Assembly: GCA_964530135.1 (NCBI GenBank)
Contig: CAZGXN010000002.1
Location: 67,308 to 131,307 of the forward strand
Direction: 5' to 3'
From: an uncultured Bdellovibrionales bacterium
GTDB taxonomy: Bacteria > Patescibacteriota > Minisyncoccia > Moranbacterales > UBA1568
Length of the DNA stretch: 64,000 nt
The first letter of the stretch is position 1, and every line of letters starts with the position of its first letter. The position numbers were made by a program, and so were the translations under genes. The notes beneath the pieces were generated by a model that had not been told where the DNA came from, did not search any database, and was given only the letters and a program-made list of their open reading frames with translations. This document shows, piece after piece, positions 5,315 to 60,943 of this stretch.

Positions 5315-7414
5315 CTAATTCTTCTTTCCGAACACCACCCCCCAATACACATCCCTTTCAAGGGGTTGTTCCAGCGTAAAGATACGCTGGTACGGTATCA
5401 AATTTTCTGGGGTCTGCCAAACTGGTTGCCATCCCTCAGGATAATGCAGGGTAGCCTTCAAACGGACACCTTGCGTACCGGACTGCTTCTGGTACAGAGC
5501 TGAATATGAATGAACCGCTTCTTTCTCATCCGCTGTCCCGAGTGTCATACGAAAAGGCAACTCATACACATAGCGAACCGTTACTGACTCCCCGGGACTG
5601 ACATAGACCCAATTACCAAACACAGTTTTCCCTGCATCGGTTGATATGCGTGTGCCACTGGCTGGATCAATGACCATTTCTCCTTCTTCGCGAGTGATAT
5701 CCGGATCCTGACGGAAACCAAGCGCGGCATAATTCAAGGGAGGTTCAGGAAATTCTCGTGTCATACCCTCAGCTGAGATGAGGGTTGCCCCCTGAGGAAC
5801 ATACACTCGCAGATAATCGGCATTAACCTTGTTCCACCAGTCATAAGGCGTATTTCCGCCGGTATGTTCACGCGTAATAGAAACTGTGTCTCTCACCCGA
5901 CCATCGGACTGAATCTCTGCAGTATGCGAAATCGATTCCCGAATGACGCCATCTGTCTTGTAGCCATTGATATTGGTATGGATGACAGACAGATAGTCCC
6001 GCGGTGTCTCAATCACCTCTCCTGACCAACCAACGCCACGGATCAACTGCTCGATGTCTGGATGACGAGCATACAGGAGGATATGTTTCTCATTGAGAAG
6101 CTCGGCTAACAGACCCCCCAGCTTCCAAGTTTCCTGAGGATGATCGAAAGAAAGAAAACGCCGGATCAACACCTCCGTCAAATCCCCCAATATTTTCTTT
6201 GGATTATTCTCTTCCCGATCATACTTGACCTCAACCTCCTCCTGAAGAATCGGCATAAAATTTTCTGCCTCAATAGTTACGCCGTATTCCGGAAGAGAGA
6301 CTGGTCCGACAAGTGTCAAGATACGCTCCAATACTTCCGGCGTGAGGGTAATAATTCCGTCCACTGTCGGGCCGCCAGTCTTCTCATAAAAAAATATAGC
6401 TTTCTCAGCGGAGGTGGGAAAATCAGGAAACCAATTACTATCATGAAGGCTCCACCCTGCGCTGATCTTTTGAATTGGCTTTGGCGGCACGATATTTTCT
6501 TTCAACTGACCATCAGGATTAAATATACCGTCAACAAAAAAACGACGGATGCGAGCCTGATTCATTTCCAGAAGAGCATAGCTCCCAATAAATCCTCCCG
6601 TCGCGCGAAGCTCATGATTATTTTGAAAAAGAAAGAGATAGTTCCGTGGACCATTCATACCCAACAGCTCAGCTAAAAGTGTCTGATGTTCGGTATAGCC
6701 GCGCAGCAGTGCTGTCGTCAAAGGTAAGGCGGTGCGCACCTGAGTAACCCGAGCGCGATATTGTTCTGGGAGGGCATCAACCCGAACTCGCTCCAGCGCG
6801 CGTTGTGCGACGATCAAATGATCATACGCCGCTGTAACCGCCACCCCCGAACGCTGCAGTCGATCAATCGCTGATACTGGACCGTTAGACACCGGTGATC
6901 TATCAAGAAAATCTGGGAGTACTGGAAGAAGTACTGTGGCTGAATCAACCCCTTCACGGCCCGCACGGAATAATGCTTCAGCCGCTATACCCTGGGCGAT
7001 GCCTGGCACCTGCGTTCCACCGGTCGGAAACCAGGCAAAAGGCCGAAGCCAACGAGCGCCCGTTGCAAAATCCCGCCGTGCCAGAGCAAGATGCGTTTGA
7101 GCTTTTTCTCTCTCCCCTGCCCGAAGACTCTCAAGAGCAGCTTTCATTTCTACAACAGCTGATTCACCCAAAGCCGGTATAATCTGAATCACTGCGAAGA
7201 CTCCTAAGAAACAAAATCCTAAACACCCTCCCAATAGGGCAAGCCGACGATATACCCGATTCGGCTGCGGAACGGTAGGTTGAAGAATTGGAGTCCTCGA
7301 GGGGGCTGGTGGATACACTCGCGGTACAACCAGCCGACCTTGGAAGCCGCCCGGGTCTCTCGCTGGAATGTTTTCTTTTCGTCTGATATCTCGCATAACT
7401 TCCGTATACCTCAC
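5315..7414 (-). CDS. Large exported single-TM protein, DUF4012-like.
   Basis: 699 aa: Pro-rich cytoplasmic N-terminus, one TM, then a large domain containing LFLFQNNHELRATGGFIGSYALLEM, which matches my recollection of the DUF4012 NNAELRxTGGFIGS motif. Confidence 0.55.
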   Translation of the reverse strand: MRYTEVMRDIRRKENIPARDPGGFQGRLVVPRVYPPAPSRTPILQPTVPQPNRVYRRLALLGGCLGFCFLGVFAVIQIIPALGESAVVEMKAALESLRAGEREKAQTHLALARRDFATGARWLRPFAWFPTGGTQVPGIAQGIAAEALFRAGREGVDSATVLLPVLPDFLDRSPVSNGPVSAIDRLQRSGVAVTAAYDHLIVAQRALERVRVDALPEQYRARVTQVRTALPLTTALLRGYTEHQTLLAELLGMNGPRNYLFLFQNNHELRATGGFIGSYALLEMNQARIRRFFVDGIFNPDGQLKENIVPPKPIQKISAGWSLHDSNWFPDFPTSAEKAIFFYEKTGGPTVDGIITLTPEVLERILTLVGPVSLPEYGVTIEAENFMPILQEEVEVKYDREENNPKKILGDLTEVLIRRFLSFDHPQETWKLGGLLAELLNEKHILLYARHPDIEQLIRGVGWSGEVIETPRDYLSVIHTNINGYKTDGVIRESISHTAEIQSDGRVRDTVSITREHTGGNTPYDWWNKVNADYLRVYVPQGATLISAEGMTREFPEPPLNYAALGFRQDPDITREEGEMVIDPASGTRISTDAGKTVFGNWVYVSPGESVTVRYVYELPFRMTLGTADEKEAVHSYSALYQKQSGTQGVRLKATLHYPEGWQPVWQTPENLIPYQRIFTLEQPLERDVYWGVVFGKKN

Positions 7415-8559
7415 TTTGACTGGACAGCTTTATGATACAGGTGGAGCGTATCACGCGCCATGCGTCGCCACGAAAATTCCGCCACGCGGGAAAATCCTCG
7501 CTCTCGCAATGATCCGTTTCGTTGTGCCGAGAGAGCTTGCCGCAGCATATCAATACACGCCGACGGCTCAGTCGGATCGAAATACAGAGCAGCCGAACCA
7601 TACACTTCGGGAAGTGAGCCGGCCCGTGCCGCTACAACCGGCACGCCGTAATTCATCGCCTCAAGTCCAGGGAGACCAAAACCCTCATACAGCGAGGGGA
7701 AAAAGTATACCTGTGCCCGACGATACAGTACACCCAATGAAGCATCATCCAGATACCCTACAAACTGGATATTTATCATCCCTGCAGCTATCACCTTCTC
7801 ACGAAACGCACGATAAAAATAATCTTCTTTTCCCACGCAGAGGAAGAGATATTCGGGGAAGGCCACGGCTGCATCCAGGAGTAGTTCGAGATTTTTGTGC
7901 GGGTACGCATTGCCGACATACAAGATGAAAGGGCGAATACTCTCTCCTGTCTTGTTTTTTGATACGAGACCAAGTGAAAGGAGCAGTGTCTGTTCGGCAG
8001 CAGGAGATACCCAATAACAAAACGGGTCGGCTGCCTCAAGGGTCAGATTAGTCTTCCCGCGCGCAGCCGGATAACTAGACTCAATATCTCGCTGCGTAAA
8101 AGCGGAGACAGCGATGATCAACCGAGACCGTCGAATAGCGCAGGCGATAACCAGACGATACGCTAGGTATTTCAACCAATACAGAAAGGGGGGGAGTTCA
8201 CTCGCTTTAACGGTTGGAAAGTGAAGCAAGATCAAATCATGAATGGTTACCACAAAAGGAATGTTGATCAGTATCGGCACATTAAAATGTGGGAAGTGAA
8301 CGAGATCAAGCCGAAAATGATTGAACAGACGCGGGAGCATAAGCTGCTCCTGCCACCCATACCAAGGATAATCTGCTACTGCCTTTGTAAAACGAGGGTG
8401 CACTGGTTGGTACTCATCAAAATTTTCTTTTCGAAGAAAAACAACATATTCATTCGTATCCACCGGAAGACGCTCCAGATGAGTGATAAGTTTCTCGGTA
8501 TAACGACCCAAGCCCTTGCCAAGAGATCCGTAGAAGCGGGCATCAATACCAATCCTCAT
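7411..8559 (-). CDS. Family GT4 (GT-B) glycosyltransferase.
   Basis: 382 aa with C-terminal ...EGFGLPGLEAMNYGVPVVAARAGSLPEVYGSAALYFDP... the GT4 E-x7-E region; overlaps upstream gene by 4 nt. Confidence 0.8.
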   Translation of the reverse strand: MRIGIDARFYGSLGKGLGRYTEKLITHLERLPVDTNEYVVFLRKENFDEYQPVHPRFTKAVADYPWYGWQEQLMLPRLFNHFRLDLVHFPHFNVPILINIPFVVTIHDLILLHFPTVKASELPPFLYWLKYLAYRLVIACAIRRSRLIIAVSAFTQRDIESSYPAARGKTNLTLEAADPFCYWVSPAAEQTLLLSLGLVSKNKTGESIRPFILYVGNAYPHKNLELLLDAAVAFPEYLFLCVGKEDYFYRAFREKVIAAGMINIQFVGYLDDASLGVLYRRAQVYFFPSLYEGFGLPGLEAMNYGVPVVAARAGSLPEVYGSAALYFDPTEPSACIDMLRQALSAQRNGSLRERGFSRVAEFSWRRMARDTLHLYHKAVQSK

Positions 8560-8564
8560 AGTAA

Positions 8565-9269
8565 TTACACAGATGGTTCGACTGATCCGAGGGATGCTTG
8601 GCTATTCATTGAAAAGATAAAGAGTGCCTCTGCTGCGAGGATCTGAAAAACACCAGTTTCTTCAAGACGGTTCTTCATTTTATGAAATACGATAAAGGCT
8701 GCCACTCCCCTGACATCTTCTGGTGAACGCACGAACGAAAATTTCCCCTCTTCCCACAAGTATTTTTTGGTATCCAGGAGATACCGCCCATCAAAATTTT
8801 TCATGACCTCATAGTGTTTCCCATCCCCGACCTCATAGCGCTCGAGGATTGAATTGTCTCCGAGAGCAACAAAATAGAGTGCGACACAATTGGATCGAGC
8901 GAGGAGTTGTATCGCATCAATAATTGGGTCATACAATGCCTGCCCCTGCAATGCTGATACCTTCGACTGTGGCAACGATACCACCATGTTCTTCACGATA
9001 TCGATCCGCCGATTCATCTCGCCGATATACGAATACGATTGAGAGAGATCTTTCCGAATCTGATTGGCCTCTTGTTGCAATGAGAGTTTTTCTCGAACCG
9101 CTCGCAAGAATGCAGACTCTTTACCGAGATACAGAAGCAATCCAGCAATACCAAAGCAAAATATCAATAGCGATTCGAGATCTTCCTCGTTAAAAAACAA
9201 GATACCATCTTGTACGAATTCGGGCGTTACAATCATGCATACGAACAAGATGAGGTATATCCAATACAT
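8565..9269 (-). CDS. Hypothetical membrane protein (2 predicted TM plus a ~230-aa cytoplasmic coiled-coil-containing domain); start placed at the internal MYWIYL to avoid overlapping galU.
   Basis: ORF 8565..9491 overlaps the galU 3' end by ~200 nt; the internal Met just after the galU stop gives a clean start. Confidence 0.4.
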   Translation of the reverse strand: MYWIYLILFVCMIVTPEFVQDGILFFNEEDLESLLIFCFGIAGLLLYLGKESAFLRAVREKLSLQQEANQIRKDLSQSYSYIGEMNRRIDIVKNMVVSLPQSKVSALQGQALYDPIIDAIQLLARSNCVALYFVALGDNSILERYEVGDGKHYEVMKNFDGRYLLDTKKYLWEEGKFSFVRSPEDVRGVAAFIVFHKMKNRLEETGVFQILAAEALFIFSMNSQASLGSVEPSV

Positions 9270-9282
9270 GTTTTCGTTTTTA

Positions 9283-10170
9283 TCACGAAGGCCGAAGTGT
9301 TTTGAGATAGGACCGGAGTTTGTCGCCAACCTCAGGGTGTTGCAAGCCGAAATGAATGGTCGCCTTGATAAAATTGAATTTATCGCCCGTATCAAGCCAT
9401 TCGCCGGAAAGCTTCCTTCCATACAGCGGTTTCCCCTGCTCCAACATCGCATCAAAAGCGTCCGCCAAACGAATCTCACCACTCTTTCCATGCTTCATCG
9501 AAGCTAACACTCGAAATACTTCAGGGGTAATGATGTATTTCCCAACTGCCACGAGATTGGATGGTGCGGCTTCAAGTGTTGGCTTTTCGATAATGCCCTT
9601 TACTTCATACGTCATATCATCGAGGGGAATACCGTCGATCACGCCAAACTTTGACACCTCTTCTGGAACGACTTCGGATAAGCCGATGACCGGATCGTGA
9701 TATTTCTCATAAGTCTCAATCAACTGTCGAGATGCCGGAATCGCTGAATCATATAGACAGTCACCGAAAATCACGAGGACGCTTTCATCATCATCTACGA
9801 GATGTGCGGCCTGAAGCAGCGCATGACCATCACCGAGAGGCACTGGTTGTCGGACATAGGAAAACTTTGCCAAACCGGAAATTTTTTGAACCGCCTCGAG
9901 AAGCGCGTGTTTGTTTTTCTCAACAAGCGTATCTTCAAGTTCATAAGAAACATCGAAATGATCTTCGATAGCCCGCTTCCCGCGACCAGTAACAAAAATA
10001 ATTTCTTCGATACCCGATGCCACTGCCTCTTCGACGAGATACTGAATGACTGGTTTATCGACGATGGGGAGCATTTCCTTTGGCTGAGCTTTCGTTGCTG
10101 GTAAGAAACGAGTCCCAAACCCAGCAACCGGAAGAATTGCTTTTTTTACTGAGCGGTATTGATCATGCAT
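9283..10170 (-). CDS. galU: UTP--glucose-1-phosphate uridylyltransferase.
   Basis: AILPVAGFGTRFLPATKAQPKEMLPIVDKPVIQY... N-terminus and length 295 aa typical of GalU. Confidence 0.9.
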   Translation of the reverse strand: MHDQYRSVKKAILPVAGFGTRFLPATKAQPKEMLPIVDKPVIQYLVEEAVASGIEEIIFVTGRGKRAIEDHFDVSYELEDTLVEKNKHALLEAVQKISGLAKFSYVRQPVPLGDGHALLQAAHLVDDDESVLVIFGDCLYDSAIPASRQLIETYEKYHDPVIGLSEVVPEEVSKFGVIDGIPLDDMTYEVKGIIEKPTLEAAPSNLVAVGKYIITPEVFRVLASMKHGKSGEIRLADAFDAMLEQGKPLYGRKLSGEWLDTGDKFNFIKATIHFGLQHPEVGDKLRSYLKTLRPS

Positions 10171-10202
10171 ACAAGTGAAGAAATTATCTATTTATATCCT
10201 AC

Positions 10203-10997
10203 TTAGTGGAGAGAAACCAGACGCTTGAACTCCTGATTGAAATCGATAAGAGCTTCCTCAAGCATCGGATGAAACTGCGACCGAAGATTCTTTTCGCGGA
10301 CATGAATACTGGCATCGAGGAGTGAATCATGGGTACCAACATCAAACCAGGCGCCCTCAATCACGCGGACATCAAGCTGATTTTTTCCGAGATAGTGATT
10401 GTGGATGTCGGTGATCTCTAACTCGCCCCGTGAAGAGGGTTGGAGTCCACGCGCAACCTCGACCACATCAGCATCATAGATATACAGCCCAGGGATCGCA
10501 AAATGACTCTTGGGTGATTTTGGTTTCTCAACAATCGACAGTACCTTACCCGTTACCGGATCAAACTCAACAACGCCAAAACGCTCTGGATCCGGCACGG
10601 CTTTCGCAAATACCCGACCACCACTCTCAAAACTTTGAATCGCTTCGATAAAATTGTCATCAAAAAGATTATCCCCCAAAATCATTGTGCAGGGACCATT
10701 GTCGATAAAGTCCTCTCCGAGAATAAAAGCTTCTGCCAACCCACGCGGTTCTTTCTGGACAACGAAAGAAATGTTGATTCCATATTTTCGGAGCAAAGAT
10801 CCAAGAAGGTTGAGATAATTTCCCGCATGCTCGGGAGAAACAATAATCAGGATATCTCGGATGCCGGCCGAAATGAGAGTATTGAGCGGATAGAAAATCA
10901 TTGGTCGATCGTACACCGGAAGAAGCTGCTTCGAGGCGATGGCCGTAAGCGGAAGGAGTCGGGTACCATTACCACCTGCGAGAATAATACCTTTCAT
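10203..10997 (-). CDS. rmlA: Glucose-1-phosphate thymidylyltransferase (RmlA family, short form).
   Basis: MKGIILAGGNGTRLLPLT...KQLLPVYDRPMIFYPL... nucleotidyltransferase signature. Confidence 0.8.
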   Translation of the reverse strand: MKGIILAGGNGTRLLPLTAIASKQLLPVYDRPMIFYPLNTLISAGIRDILIIVSPEHAGNYLNLLGSLLRKYGINISFVVQKEPRGLAEAFILGEDFIDNGPCTMILGDNLFDDNFIEAIQSFESGGRVFAKAVPDPERFGVVEFDPVTGKVLSIVEKPKSPKSHFAIPGLYIYDADVVEVARGLQPSSRGELEITDIHNHYLGKNQLDVRVIEGAWFDVGTHDSLLDASIHVREKNLRSQFHPMLEEALIDFNQEFKRLVSLH

Positions 10998-25544: not shown

Positions 25545-25699
25545 AGTGCAAGCATGTGGAAAGCTAGCACAGCATACCCGGTTCTCGGGCTTCTTTCAAG
25601 TAGCTCTGTAATTTCCTTCCATTCCCATGACCAAACATCCCGAGATACAAATCAGTCAGAGCCAAAAGAAGTTTCCACCATACGCTTCTATATTGAGCA

Positions 25700-25745
25700 A
25701 AACAAAAACCCTTGGTTACTACATGGTAGTTTCCAAGGGTCCAAG
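25700..25745 (-). terminator. Rho-independent terminator of the hypothetical gene 25796..26518.
   Basis: Minus-strand cccttggaaactac-cat-gtagtaaccaaggg hairpin followed by tttttgttttgc. Confidence 0.45.
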
Positions 25746-25795
25746 AGTCTAAGTGTCCAAGAGTCTTTTGCCTAATGGACTGAAGGGTCAAATCA

Positions 25796-26518
25796 TCACA
25801 GGGCTGCGTTGCCTGGGCAGAGAACCTGGTCGTCAGCATGCCAGCGGCCAAACTCGTCGATCTTCCAGACGTTGACGCGCCACCGGCGGTCGTCGGAGTC
25901 CCGGCGGACACCCACGGCGAAGACAACACCTCCTTTGCCCTCGACATAGAAGATGTTCGCGGAGCCGTTGTTGAGGAGCAAACCCGACTGGCCGCCCGGC
26001 TGTGCCTCGATCAAGGCTGCGATGTCTTCCAGCGTGGAGAGGTGGTTTTCCGGCAGTTCCTCCCTGATGTCTCGGTCGTAGGCGTTCGCTTTGAGGAGCG
26101 AGGCTACATAGGGACATGCCGGGGTCGAATCCACCGTCTGCCTGGCGTGGATGTCGAGGCGATCGGCGAAGGTGTCGTGGATGTAGAGGCCGGTGCCGGT
26201 CTGGTAGAACGCCGCCGCATTGAAGGGCTTGGTTCTCGCCGGAACGGTTGACTTGCCGACAGGCTTGAGGAGCCGGGTTTCAGCGAGCACGGGATATTGA
26301 GAATCTCGCCTCTTCAAGATACCAACAATCGCTTGTTGCATTTCTGCCTTGATCTCACCAAAGTGCTCAATGGCACACCGGGCACCATCTTTGCTCAGTT
26401 TTGCGTCAACGATGGCTAAAAAGGCGACATTGGGCGTGGCATCTTCAAGGAGACGCTGCAGTTCCTTTTCATGGTCTTGCATGATCGACTGAGTCGTCAT
26501 CGCAGTCTCCTTGCCCAT
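25796..26518 (-). CDS. Hypothetical protein; the 3' two-thirds of the gene is a high-GC island.
   Basis: Longest ORF in the region; own promoter-like region and terminator; antisense ORFs (e.g. 25838..26251+) are typical GC-rich shadows. Confidence 0.5.
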   Translation of the reverse strand: MGKETAMTTQSIMQDHEKELQRLLEDATPNVAFLAIVDAKLSKDGARCAIEHFGEIKAEMQQAIVGILKRRDSQYPVLAETRLLKPVGKSTVPARTKPFNAAAFYQTGTGLYIHDTFADRLDIHARQTVDSTPACPYVASLLKANAYDRDIREELPENHLSTLEDIAALIEAQPGGQSGLLLNNGSANIFYVEGKGGVVFAVGVRRDSDDRRWRVNVWKIDEFGRWHADDQVLCPGNAAL

Positions 26519-26539
26519 AGCCTAACCAAAGTGGTTAAG

Positions 26540-26617
26540 TTTGCCAGAGCGAAGAAGCTTCTCTTTCCCAACTAAGAGATCGAATCTCCAAATAAAAAAA
26601 CCTCTTCGCTCTGGCAA
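26540..26617. promoter_or_regulatory. Imperfect inverted repeat between rlmN and the hypothetical gene (operator or attenuator candidate).
   Basis: gccagagcgaagaag ... cctcttcgctctggc separated by ~45 nt, including an A7 run. Confidence 0.3.
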
Positions 26618-26789
26618 CTTGATTGGTTTTTAATGAACGATGTATTATACACTTTTTTACGATTGTGTCTAGAGTAATAATACGGCTCGAACAAGTCTCT
26701 CTTTCTTTTCACTCAGTCTCTTGCAGTCTCAACTTATTTCCTTTCAAATCTCTATTATCCATACAGTCGGAGGAATAGGCTGAGATGAT

Positions 26790-46727: not shown

Positions 46728-47489
46728 CTAGTAGTAGGCGCCTTCGATATCGACGATGGTGCCATAAACGTAATCGGATGCTTCACCCGAAAGTGAGACG
46801 ATAAGGTTGGCGACTTCTTCGGGCTTGGCTTGGCGACCACTCTTGATCTTGGGCAATTCGACTGCCCAATCCTCTGCCGTTACAGTATCGTTCATCCGAG
46901 TCTTGACCCAACCCGGAGCAACTCCGTTGACATGGATGCCATGCTCGGCATAGTAGTAGCTCGCATTCTTCACGAGCGCCTCTTGGCCCGCCTTCGAGGA
47001 ATCGTAGGGTGCAGAACTTGCACTGAAAGTTCGGCGGCCATTGATGGACGTCACAACGACGATACGGCCGGCGATACCCTTGGCGACCATACGGTCTGCG
47101 ATGGCCCGAGTCGAAACCCAACAGCCGACCAGATTGACCGCAAGAACTTTGGCCCAGAGTTCAGGGGTCTGATCCTTGAACGGAGTATCCGGCGACCATC
47201 CGATGTTGTCGGCAACGACATCGATCTCTTGGCCGTTTGCCGCGACTGCGTTCTCGAGCAACTGCTCGAACGCTTTCGGATCCATCCGGTCGCCATGACC
47301 GGCGACAAAGACCTTTACATCTTTCGCGCGGAGCTCTTCGGCCAGTGCTTCCGCTTCCGATTGCTTACTGCCATACGTCAATGTAATCGCAGTGGCACCA
47401 GCGCTGAGGTACTTCATCGCAACCGCGTGGCCGATGCCGCCGCTCGCTCCGAGCACCAATGCGTGCTTGCCCTTAAGGTACGTGCTCAT
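46728..47489 (-). CDS. SDR family oxidoreductase.
   Basis: LVLGASGGIGHAVA TGxxxGxG, NNAG-like region, YDSSK catalytic Y-x3-K. Confidence 0.85.
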   Translation of the reverse strand: MSTYLKGKHALVLGASGGIGHAVAMKYLSAGATAITLTYGSKQSEAEALAEELRAKDVKVFVAGHGDRMDPKAFEQLLENAVAANGQEIDVVADNIGWSPDTPFKDQTPELWAKVLAVNLVGCWVSTRAIADRMVAKGIAGRIVVVTSINGRRTFSASSAPYDSSKAGQEALVKNASYYYAEHGIHVNGVAPGWVKTRMNDTVTAEDWAVELPKIKSGRQAKPEEVANLIVSLSGEASDYVYGTIVDIEGAYY

Positions 47490-60490: not shown

Positions 60491-60943
60491 TTGCCAAATA
60501 GCCAAACCCACGGTATGGTCGAGACAAATAGTTGGTCCTTTAACTTTCCGGAGGGCTCTAGCATGGTCCACACTTCCGCGCTCTTCAGCCGTTTCATGAT
60601 GAAAGAGGCATACACCGTATCCCTCATCCGGCAACTGATCTATCCAACCGGTAACGTGCACTGCACGGCCATCGAGTACCGTTTGATATACACCAGTATC
60701 ATCAATGCCCCAAGTGCCGCCCAAGCCGTCATGGAGGCCCTCTACGAATACTCTACCGAACGCCTCATCGCTCGACGGAGCACAGGGAACAAATCACTCA
60801 GTCTAAAAAATCTCAGCGACATTGATCTCTGGGCTCATAACTGGACTTGGTCTACACTCCGACTCACCGGAACTCCCAAACAAGACATCTTCTTTGTTGT
60901 CAAGCCGTGGGAGCCGCCAAAGCGCCTCCCACCAACCGATTGA
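60491..60943 (+). CDS. Hypothetical protein (TTG start; true start uncertain).
   Basis: 150-aa plus-strand ORF in a 540-bp gap; a competing 83-aa minus ORF 60473..60724 looks less protein-like. Confidence 0.25.
   Translation: MPNSQTHGMVETNSWSFNFPEGSSMVHTSALFSRFMMKEAYTVSLIRQLIYPTGNVHCTAIEYRLIYTSIINAPSAAQAVMEALYEYSTERLIARRSTGNKSLSLKNLSDIDLWAHNWTWSTLRLTGTPKQDIFFVVKPWEPPKRLPPTD

Follow-up and report, generated by a model that had tools for sequence, protein, structure and literature searches.

What is the small hypothetical gene that lies directly upstream of a miaB-like gene in a 64-kb stretch of a Patescibacteria genome (64,000 nucleotides, positions 67,308 to 131,307 of contig CAZGXN010000002.1, assembly GCA_964530135.1; hereafter the window), and why is the 3' two-thirds of its reading frame a GC island? 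An initial annotation, made from the letters alone, had proposed a recent horizontal insertion, a domain fusion or an assembly chimera; the identity of the gene was absent from it. We conclude that the open reading frame (ORF) is the target (variable protein) gene of a diversity-generating retroelement (DGR) of the candidate phyla radiation (CPR, Patescibacteria) type, a predicted identity to which we give a probability of about 0.85. Homology to the targets of complete cassettes, an adenine-specific variable region (VR), the lack of donor genes in the window, the origin of the GC excess at third codon positions, its occurrence throughout the family and the mosaicism of the family are all seen directly.

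Homologues and complete cassettes in relatives

The product of ORF 25796-26518 has no significant match in Pfam or NCBIfam, as the initial annotation, which recognised no family for the 240-aa product, had anticipated, and exact look-ups returned no record for this protein or for its relative P0001. Protein search recovered 152 relatives, every named one from Candidatus Moranbacteria; many are full length (~234 aa, 60-70% identical), and others comprise the C-terminal ~165 aa only or carry unrelated N-termini. Clustered at 50% identity, the family comprises 1988 representatives at E ≤ 1e-3, and a search of PHROGs with the target protein gave no match.

The identification was made at the locus of the relative P0003 (68% identical), where a copy of the gene's last ~120 coding bases lies ~320 bp downstream as a template repeat (TR), followed by a 363-aa reverse transcriptase (RT; RVT_1). 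VR and TR differ there at 17 positions, 16 of them TR adenines, and the combination of a VR, an adenine-biased TR and an RT is, as judged from sequence, the signature of a DGR. The cassette RT has matches to RVT_1 and to phrog_1423, a family of phage RTs; it also contains LGNLTSQ and YADD, the forms that RT motifs 4 and 5 take in DGRs. An Avd gene (PF22296, bAvd-like, E = 6.7e-13, above the curated cut-off) lies on the opposite strand between TR and RT and was found in 10 of 10 TR-linked loci (duplicates L001 and L002 counted), so that the cassette reads: target gene, terminator, spacer, TR, Avd (opposite strand), RT. With an adenine-biased TR/VR pair and Avd, the relatives are not retron-like or group II intron-like.

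Scanning species-representative genomes yielded 23 loci, eight with an adjacent TR. An RT accompanies the TR in six of the eight; the other two are L010, which is cut by a contig end, and L024, whose TR match spans only 51 nt. Neither TR nor RT was found within up to 10 kb of the remaining 15 loci. Over its full length, the window gene shares 59-68% identity with the targets in L003, L004, L005 and L008, which have an adjacent TR, Avd and RT, and in L029/L030, which have an adjacent TR.

Some of these loci show features of their own. In L008, two family members (~8990-9650 and 10019-10723) stand in tandem upstream of one TR-Avd-RT, and the VR 3' end of the first fits the common TR type, not the divergent L008 TR. 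The Avd frame of L003 (11180-11505, minus strand) is missing from the mechanical ORF list because no ATG, GTG or TTG lies near its 5' end; a non-canonical start is possible. One 926-aa relative (P0132) contains five stretches matching the C-terminal domain and may be a tandem array of VR-type domains. Several metagenome-assembled genome (MAG) contigs labelled uncultured Bdellovibrionales bacterium (L004, L005, L008, L009, L012 and others) carry this Moranbacteria-type gene, and the labels look wrong; the housekeeping genes of L009 are 80-87% identical to those of the window.

Variable region of the window copy

The window VR was compared with heterologous TRs, which are nearly identical between species, including species whose RTs share 62-67% protein identity. 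It is 81.5% identical over 119 nt to the TR of L001. Against the TR of L004 it has 21 mismatches, 18 at TR adenines, and against the TR consensus (32 adenines in 119 positions) 22 mismatches, 17 at adenines (hypergeometric p = 4e-8). The five non-adenine differences from the consensus comprise two at TR-polymorphic positions, one fixed difference between VRs and TRs at the 3' end (GGCAACGC in VRs, the window VR included; GGCCACGC in TRs) and two genuine changes.

The same partition holds across the family, where alignment columns at TR adenines have an entropy of 1.49 bits, against 0.29 bits for the others; the set comprised 29 gap-free sequences from all loci, three of them actually TRs, and the contrast is therefore slightly understated. 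In the protein alignment the VR follows the pattern VFAVxVxWxSxxRxWxVxxWxLxExGxWxAxxQVLCPGNAAL, and the TR pattern of the family is GTCTTCGCCGTGAATGTCAACTGGAACTC[C/G]GACAACCGCAAGTGGAACGTCAACGACTGGAAGCTCGACGAGAATGGCAACTGGAA[C/T]GCTGACAACCAGGTTCTCTGCCCAGGCCACGC.

By the proposed mechanism, the TR would be transcribed, and RT and Avd would copy it into complementary DNA (cDNA) with misincorporation opposite template adenines; the cDNA would then replace the last ~119 coding bases of the target, which are its VR. Each such replacement would randomise ~17-20 residues, placed by an AlphaFold2 model on two beta-strands and the loop that follows them. The window would represent the recipient half of this system only, with promoter, structured leader, gene with VR, conserved 3' untranslated region (UTR) and terminator. 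The copy may be active at present, and its protein may bind a ligand. Coordinates are collected in Table 1.

Table 1. Features of the predicted DGR target locus (positions in the 64-kb window)
Feature	Position	Strand	Basis or remark
Predicted DGR variable-protein gene	25796..26500	(-)	234 aa + stop; longest mechanical ORF 25796-26518, 240 aa
N-terminal helical region, residues 7-79 (ORF numbering)	26282..26500	(-)	lineage-specific, GC3 0.54
Conserved C-terminal alpha/beta domain, residues 80-240 = GC island	25799..26281	(-)	GC3 0.81
Putative VR, codons 199-238 of 240	25806..25924	(-)	ungapped alignment to family TRs
Sigma-70-like promoter TAGACA-N16-TATAAT, GTG before it	26644..26671	(-)	11/12 consensus positions
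Structured 5' leader	26521..26617	(-)	long imperfect hairpin 26541-26617 + small hairpin 26521-26539
Conserved 3' UTR element	25743..25795	(-)	two GACNCTTGGAC motifs; kept in 22 loci
Intrinsic-terminator-like hairpin ~25710-25742 + T-tract 25699-25709	25699..25742	(-)	fold
Spacer homology, ~50 nt	25652..25698	(-)	blastn alignment to L004 4422-4560, L005, L016, L003

Remote target or orphan

The 64-kb window contains no second copy of the VR (that is, no TR), no DGR RT (best tblastn E = 0.25 with the L001 RT), no Avd and no paralogue of the target gene. With TR, Avd and RT all missing, the copy is therefore a remote target or a recent orphan. The missing donor parts also weigh against the identification itself, as do several further observations. 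The two genuine non-adenine changes in the window VR are T>C, giving W206R, and C>A, giving L220I, and W206R strikes a Trp conserved in at least 90% of homologues. Genome and metagenome scans of three collections brought up no closer relative than a best match of 68% identity, and the VR-bearing domain has no Foldseek or Pfam match to C-type lectin DGR proteins. Among the relatives, the VR of the syntenic locus L009 carries a 9-nt deletion, L014 is a decayed cassette in which the TR is gone and an Avd fragment is all that is left, and in the complete genome CP064994.1 the sole family locus (L020) is stand-alone with at least nine non-adenine differences. Finally, the cause of the high GC3 (GC content at third codon positions) described below is one that we infer: a by-product of exchange, for example GC-biased conversion, or of nucleotide-level constraint.

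That the window copy is serviced in trans from elsewhere in the genome has, in our estimate, about an even chance. The window copy retains an intact ORF, VR 3' end and set of 3' elements, and its two true non-adenine VR differences fall within what genuine VR/TR pairs show against heterologous TRs. Trans-targeting in this family is plausible, because one MAG contains both a stand-alone copy (L012) and a full cassette (L004), and 17 of the 19 sites that distinguish the L012 VR from the L004 TR are adenines. P0001 and the window protein are 98% identical in the scaffold and 56% in the VR, pointing to very recent diversification in the allele lineage of the window. Other DGRs are known to act in trans and to have remote targets (Wu et al. 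2018, PMC5758913).

The competing explanation, to which we give somewhat less than an even chance, is that the window gene is a relic: a former DGR target whose TR-Avd-RT partner has been deleted and which would now be fixed, no longer diversified and possibly decaying. It fits the absence of RT, TR and Avd from the 64 kb and the W206R change, and the decay of L014 together with the divergence of L020 indicates that some stand-alone copies are indeed relics; the deletion in the L009 VR tends the same way. It is also suggested by the sequence downstream of the gene. Window 25652-25790 aligns with L004 4422-4560 at 84% identity over ~140 nt (blastn), so that homology reaches ~50 nt beyond the terminator into the cassette spacer before it ends at ~25652, ~100 nt before miaB, and the segment 25652-25698 is possibly a remnant of the lost TR-Avd-RT segment. 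A relic, however, sits poorly with an intact ORF, with a VR that departs from the TR type, itself almost invariant between species, at just two true non-adenine positions, and with a VR 3' end and 3' UTR elements conserved at 84%; the coexistence of L012 and L004 and the contrast between scaffold and VR in P0001 also stand against it.

The course of decay can be read in L014 itself: in its positions 589-860, the sequence following the terminator joins straight to the post-TR region, Avd residues 36-89 are left, and no RT occurs within 7 kb.

Size and codon-position origin of the GC island

The initial annotation had counted 63-72% GC by hand for about 25800-26270, against 48-55% in the 5' part of the ORF and the flanking genes, and the contrast is confirmed. 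No other 480-bp stretch of the window is as GC-rich as 25797-26276, at 63.1% (window mean 49.2%, sd 3.0, z = 4.7), and the eight 60-nt blocks from 25801 to 26280 measure 65, 72, 53, 65, 60, 63, 65 and 60% GC (block 25861-25920, 71.7%). The 5' part of the ORF (26281-26518) has 50.4% GC, the miaB-like gene 48.9% and rlmN 49.4%. The excess falls at third codon positions, so the island is not an amino-acid effect, and amino-acid composition is ruled out as its cause: GC at positions 1/2/3 is 0.64/0.45/0.81 in codons 81-240, with third-position C at 0.54, and 0.61/0.35/0.54 in codons 1-80, with position 3 at ~0.50-0.54 in the neighbouring genes. The whole ORF ranks first of the 56 window ORFs (GC3 0.71, mean 0.50; third-position C 0.44, mean 0.23). 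Avoidance of adenine on the coding strand was ruled out as well, third-position A (0.09) and T (0.10) being equally depleted and the AT skew positive.

Three other ORFs of the window were recorded in this connection. Two are the next in order of GC3 richness. One encodes a short-chain dehydrogenase (46728-47489, minus strand, GC3 0.65). The other, a 150-aa ORF at 60491-60943, has no Pfam match and a third-position C of 0.42, and is on the plus strand, nearly all window genes being on the minus strand. An antisense ORF of 137 aa (25838-26251, plus strand) overlies the GC island, with similar ORFs in L003 (215 aa) and L009 (146 aa); antisense frames are expected in GC3-rich DNA, and we regard it as most likely a by-product of high GC3.

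Composition and exchange across the family

The last 160 codons have a GC3 of 0.72-0.82 and ~50% third-position C in 14 of 14 homologues. GC content ranges from 0.53 to 0.63 in the family genes and from 0.42 to 0.60 in the host flanks, and in one host, with flanks at 60% GC, the surrounding DNA exceeds the gene in GC content. Given this shared composition, the island is a family trait, not an assembly error. The N-terminal part of the homologues is mostly GC3-rich too (mostly 0.61-0.78), unlike that of the window gene, which is host-like at 0.54; this is why the window displays a composition step. The RT genes of the same cassettes have an ordinary, host-like GC3 of 0.45-0.56, on which ground a foreign, high-GC origin of the entire cassette was rejected.

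Conservation of the gene at the DNA level is best seen in L009, a locus syntenic with that of the window, whose rlmN, miaB, xth and rarA proteins share 80-87% identity with their window counterparts and whose target gene lies directly upstream of miaB. L009 has two extra genes (809 aa and 594 aa; 5685-9877) between rlmN and the target, which the window lacks, an indel of ~4.3 kb. Fourfold-site identity between window and L009 is 0.30-0.44 in rlmN, miaB, rarA and xth, near the chance value of 0.25, so the synonymous sites of these four flanking genes are saturated; the target scaffold reaches 0.72 and the VR 0.88. Within cassettes, the same measure is 0.27-0.36 for the RT and 0.74-0.86 for the adjacent target scaffold, and the C-terminal module is 80-87% identical between species.

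The 5' edge of the island (~codon 80, ~26281) coincides with the start of the conserved domain, and short family members begin exactly there. N- and C-terminal parts have different closest relatives: P0001 is 31% identical to the window in the N-part and 98% in the scaffold, and P0036, the closest relative by N-part (54%), is among the most distant by scaffold (68%). For the scaffold itself, 169 informative sites from 26 sequences were put to a PHI-like permutation test, which also pointed to recombination (p = 0.005). The edge at ~codon 80 thus reads as a recombination junction with a lineage-specific N-terminal region. We infer that exchange or conversion between lineages has affected the recipient module (domain, VR and 3' UTR, with the TR) more often than other parts of the genome. 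The suggestion in the initial annotation of a domain fusion or a horizontal insertion thereby stands in part, as a horizontally exchanged module, with a true domain boundary at ~codon 80 and incongruent relatives of the two parts, and falls as regards a one-off insertion from a high-GC donor.

Codon-usage selection alone, by which a highly expressed gene would have accumulated C-ending codons with no horizontal exchange, is an improbable account of the island. Third positions are ~54% C, and the gene has a promoter (11/12) and a ribosome-binding site that are both strong. But codon bias alone predicts a fourfold identity of 0.34-0.42 where 0.55-0.82 was observed at homologous fourfold sites, the N-part of the same mRNA has a GC3 of 0.54, and the other GC3-rich ORFs of the window encode a short-chain dehydrogenase, UvrC and a nuclease, which are not classic highly expressed genes.

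Still less probable is plain horizontal acquisition, in which the 3' two-thirds came from an unrelated high-GC donor and kept the donor's composition. The sharp composition step does coincide with the recombination junction, and synonymous sites are much less diverged in the gene than in its flanking genes. A one-off insertion is nevertheless contradicted by the same GC3-rich composition in every homologue examined, in hosts whose flanks span 42-60% GC and include the 60% GC host, and by L009, which has the gene in the corresponding position. Every relative with a name belongs to Moranbacteria/CPR, the RT of the adjacent cassettes is host-like in GC3, and the three collections searched held no high-GC donor with near-identical DNA. 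An assembly chimera that joined two populations or paralogues at ~26280, for which mis-joins through a C-module 80-87% identical between species are conceivable, is very improbable, since the reading frame and junction peptide match the family, the full-length architecture, junction sequence (YPVLAETRLLKPV), 5' leader and 3' UTR recur in many independent assemblies, the same leader and N-part type are joined to the C-module in L042, L043 and L008, and L009 reproduces the junction of C-module and miaB.

Protein architecture and fold

The N-terminal region has three predicted helices and is 15-54% identical to homologues, and the protein has no transmembrane-like segment (maximum Kyte-Doolittle hydropathy 1.06 over 19 residues). 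A first full-length AlphaFold2 model from a shallow alignment had a mean predicted local distance difference test score (pLDDT) of 68, and its fold search was uninformative; modelling of the C-terminal 166 residues from an alignment of 143 diverse members reached a pLDDT of 97.2 and a predicted TM-score (pTM) of 0.92. In this model the VR spans beta-strands 199-207 and 212-219, the loop that follows and the final strand. Along the VR strands, variable residues take turns with conserved ones, and the variable residues may therefore line a flat sheet face.

Foldseek searches with the C-domain model found no match in the PDB (best E = 0.8) or among the predicted viral structures of BFVD (best E = 0.47), nor did sequence and profile searches of the PDB with this domain. 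When the 143 family members were compared with Pfam, no consistent family emerged, even at E ≤ 10.

Transcription and translation signals and flanking elements

The start of the mechanical ORF is at 26518, but the likely true start is the ATG at 26500, because homologues begin with MTTQSI... at 234 aa and a ribosome-binding site, AAGGAGA, precedes it at 26506-26512. The inverted repeat that the initial annotation had placed upstream of the gene is genuine: 26541-26617 folds at -49.4 kcal/mol (z = -7.0), and the small hairpin of the leader (26521-26539) sits just 5' of the ribosome-binding site. Promoter and leader are also kept upstream of the homologues in L042/L043 and L008. The leader structure is retained in three independent loci with a few compensatory changes, and this conserved 5' leader could be a cis-regulatory RNA. 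Its one match in Rfam was a spurious sub-threshold microRNA on the leader hairpin, and nothing relevant was found there. The ~125-nt leader and promoter are shared by window 26521-26671 (minus strand), L042 420-612 and L008 8840-9030, whose genomic contexts differ; members of the L003 type lack the 5' leader upstream.

Downstream of the gene, the hairpin with T-tract (~25710-25742 and 25699-25709) and the 12-bp direct repeat of the initial annotation were likewise recovered, the latter at 25739-25750 and 25755-25766 as a GACCCTTGGA motif conserved in the 3' UTRs of the family. Two GACCCTTGGA-type motifs followed by a terminator hairpin occur in 22 loci, RT-linked and stand-alone alike. The terminator stem is retained across loci, its inner sequence varying between them, and RNAalifold of the 3' hairpin gave seven conserved outer pairs and no compensatory pairs. 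A simple terminator scan does not list the hairpin at 25699-25742 because it admits short stems only. The 3' UTR element lies beside the VR 3' end, which resembles the initiation of mutagenic homing (IMH) sequence of known DGRs, and is a candidate target-recognition region; a role in homing may be supposed.

At the stop codon, the window (25788-25800, minus strand) shares with L006, L011, L014, L018 and L032 an 8-nt insertion (CTGTGATGATTTGACCC vs CTCTGACCC), which gives two in-frame TGA codons in the window and the other loci of this subset.

Significance

With this identification, what had been a nameless anomaly of composition becomes an annotated element, a probable DGR variable-protein gene in a CPR genome. 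A GC3 island in a small hypothetical gene can also serve as a practical flag for this target family, even where the RT is distant or lost; RT-anchored surveys miss remote targets (Roux et al. 2021, PMC8144416). DGRs of this kind in CPR are already known, and the window gene adds a stand-alone target.

It is possible, if rather unlikely, that two further elements are jointly new: a DGR scaffold other than the C-type lectin, with a flat variable sheet face, ~2000 protein clusters and no Pfam model; and a module of domain, VR, 3' UTR and TR kept near-identical across Moranbacteria through horizontal exchange or GC-biased conversion that proceeds independently of the RT. If true, such RT-uncoupled exchange of the module would explain both the GC island and the many stand-alone copies. 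Three side results, namely the confident fold model with no structural match, synonymous-site conservation well above that of the cassette RT, and the mosaic N-termini, raise, should they hold, the questions of whether the C-domain is a new scaffold for massive sequence variation, why the recipient module is conserved at the DNA level, and how often CPR DGRs act in trans. Specialists may find most of interest in the GC3 signature of the family, in how well its DNA is conserved compared with the RT, in a fold that matched no known structure, and in the conserved 5' leader.

Comparison with known systems

The closest known systems are the DGRs of CPR/Patescibacteria (the 'CPR set' of Wu et al. 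2018, PMC5758913; 'DGR clade 2' of Roux et al. 2021, PMC8144416), which, like the relatives of the window gene, have a cell-encoded RT, Avd, a TR and a C-terminal adenine-specific VR. According to these papers, their targets, like that of the window, have no recognisable transmembrane segment or known domain: CPR DGR targets without recognisable domains are described (PMC8144416), several CPR VR classes (UVR1-6) could be assigned to no fold (PMC5758913), and uncharacterised VR domains might prove to be new C-type lectin variants (PMC8144416). The GC3 excess of the family and the conservation of its module relative to the RT are not mentioned for CPR DGRs in the passages of PMC5758913 and PMC8144416 consulted. 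Unlike the complete CPR DGRs, the window copy stands without donor parts within 64 kb.

The prototype is the DGR of Bordetella phage BPP-1 (Mtd, TR, Avd, Brt), whose target recognition was reportedly studied by Guo and colleagues in 2011. As in the window, its VR is the last ~40 codons of the target; its IMH (VR) and IMH* (TR) are resembled by the fixed VR/TR difference at the 3' end in the window family, and conserved structured DNA lies directly downstream of the VR in both. Unlike BPP-1, the window belongs to a bacterial host and not a phage, the gene is not a tail fibre gene, no similarity to the C-type lectin fold of Mtd is detectable in its domain, and the Avd of the relatives is on the opposite strand between TR and RT. 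In the BPP-1 type of logic, the donor genes are able to act in trans (PMC5758913).

In Treponema denticola (TvpA and seven scattered targets) and in the 'Lineage 4' remote targets, one TR/RT serves several distant paralogues, as described in PMC5758913. The window family differs in that most of its copies with at least 5 kb of downstream sequence have no TR/RT there. The multi-target pattern of T. denticola nonetheless has a counterpart here in the L004 cassette and the stand-alone L012 copy of a single MAG, which are linked by the adenine pattern of their differences.

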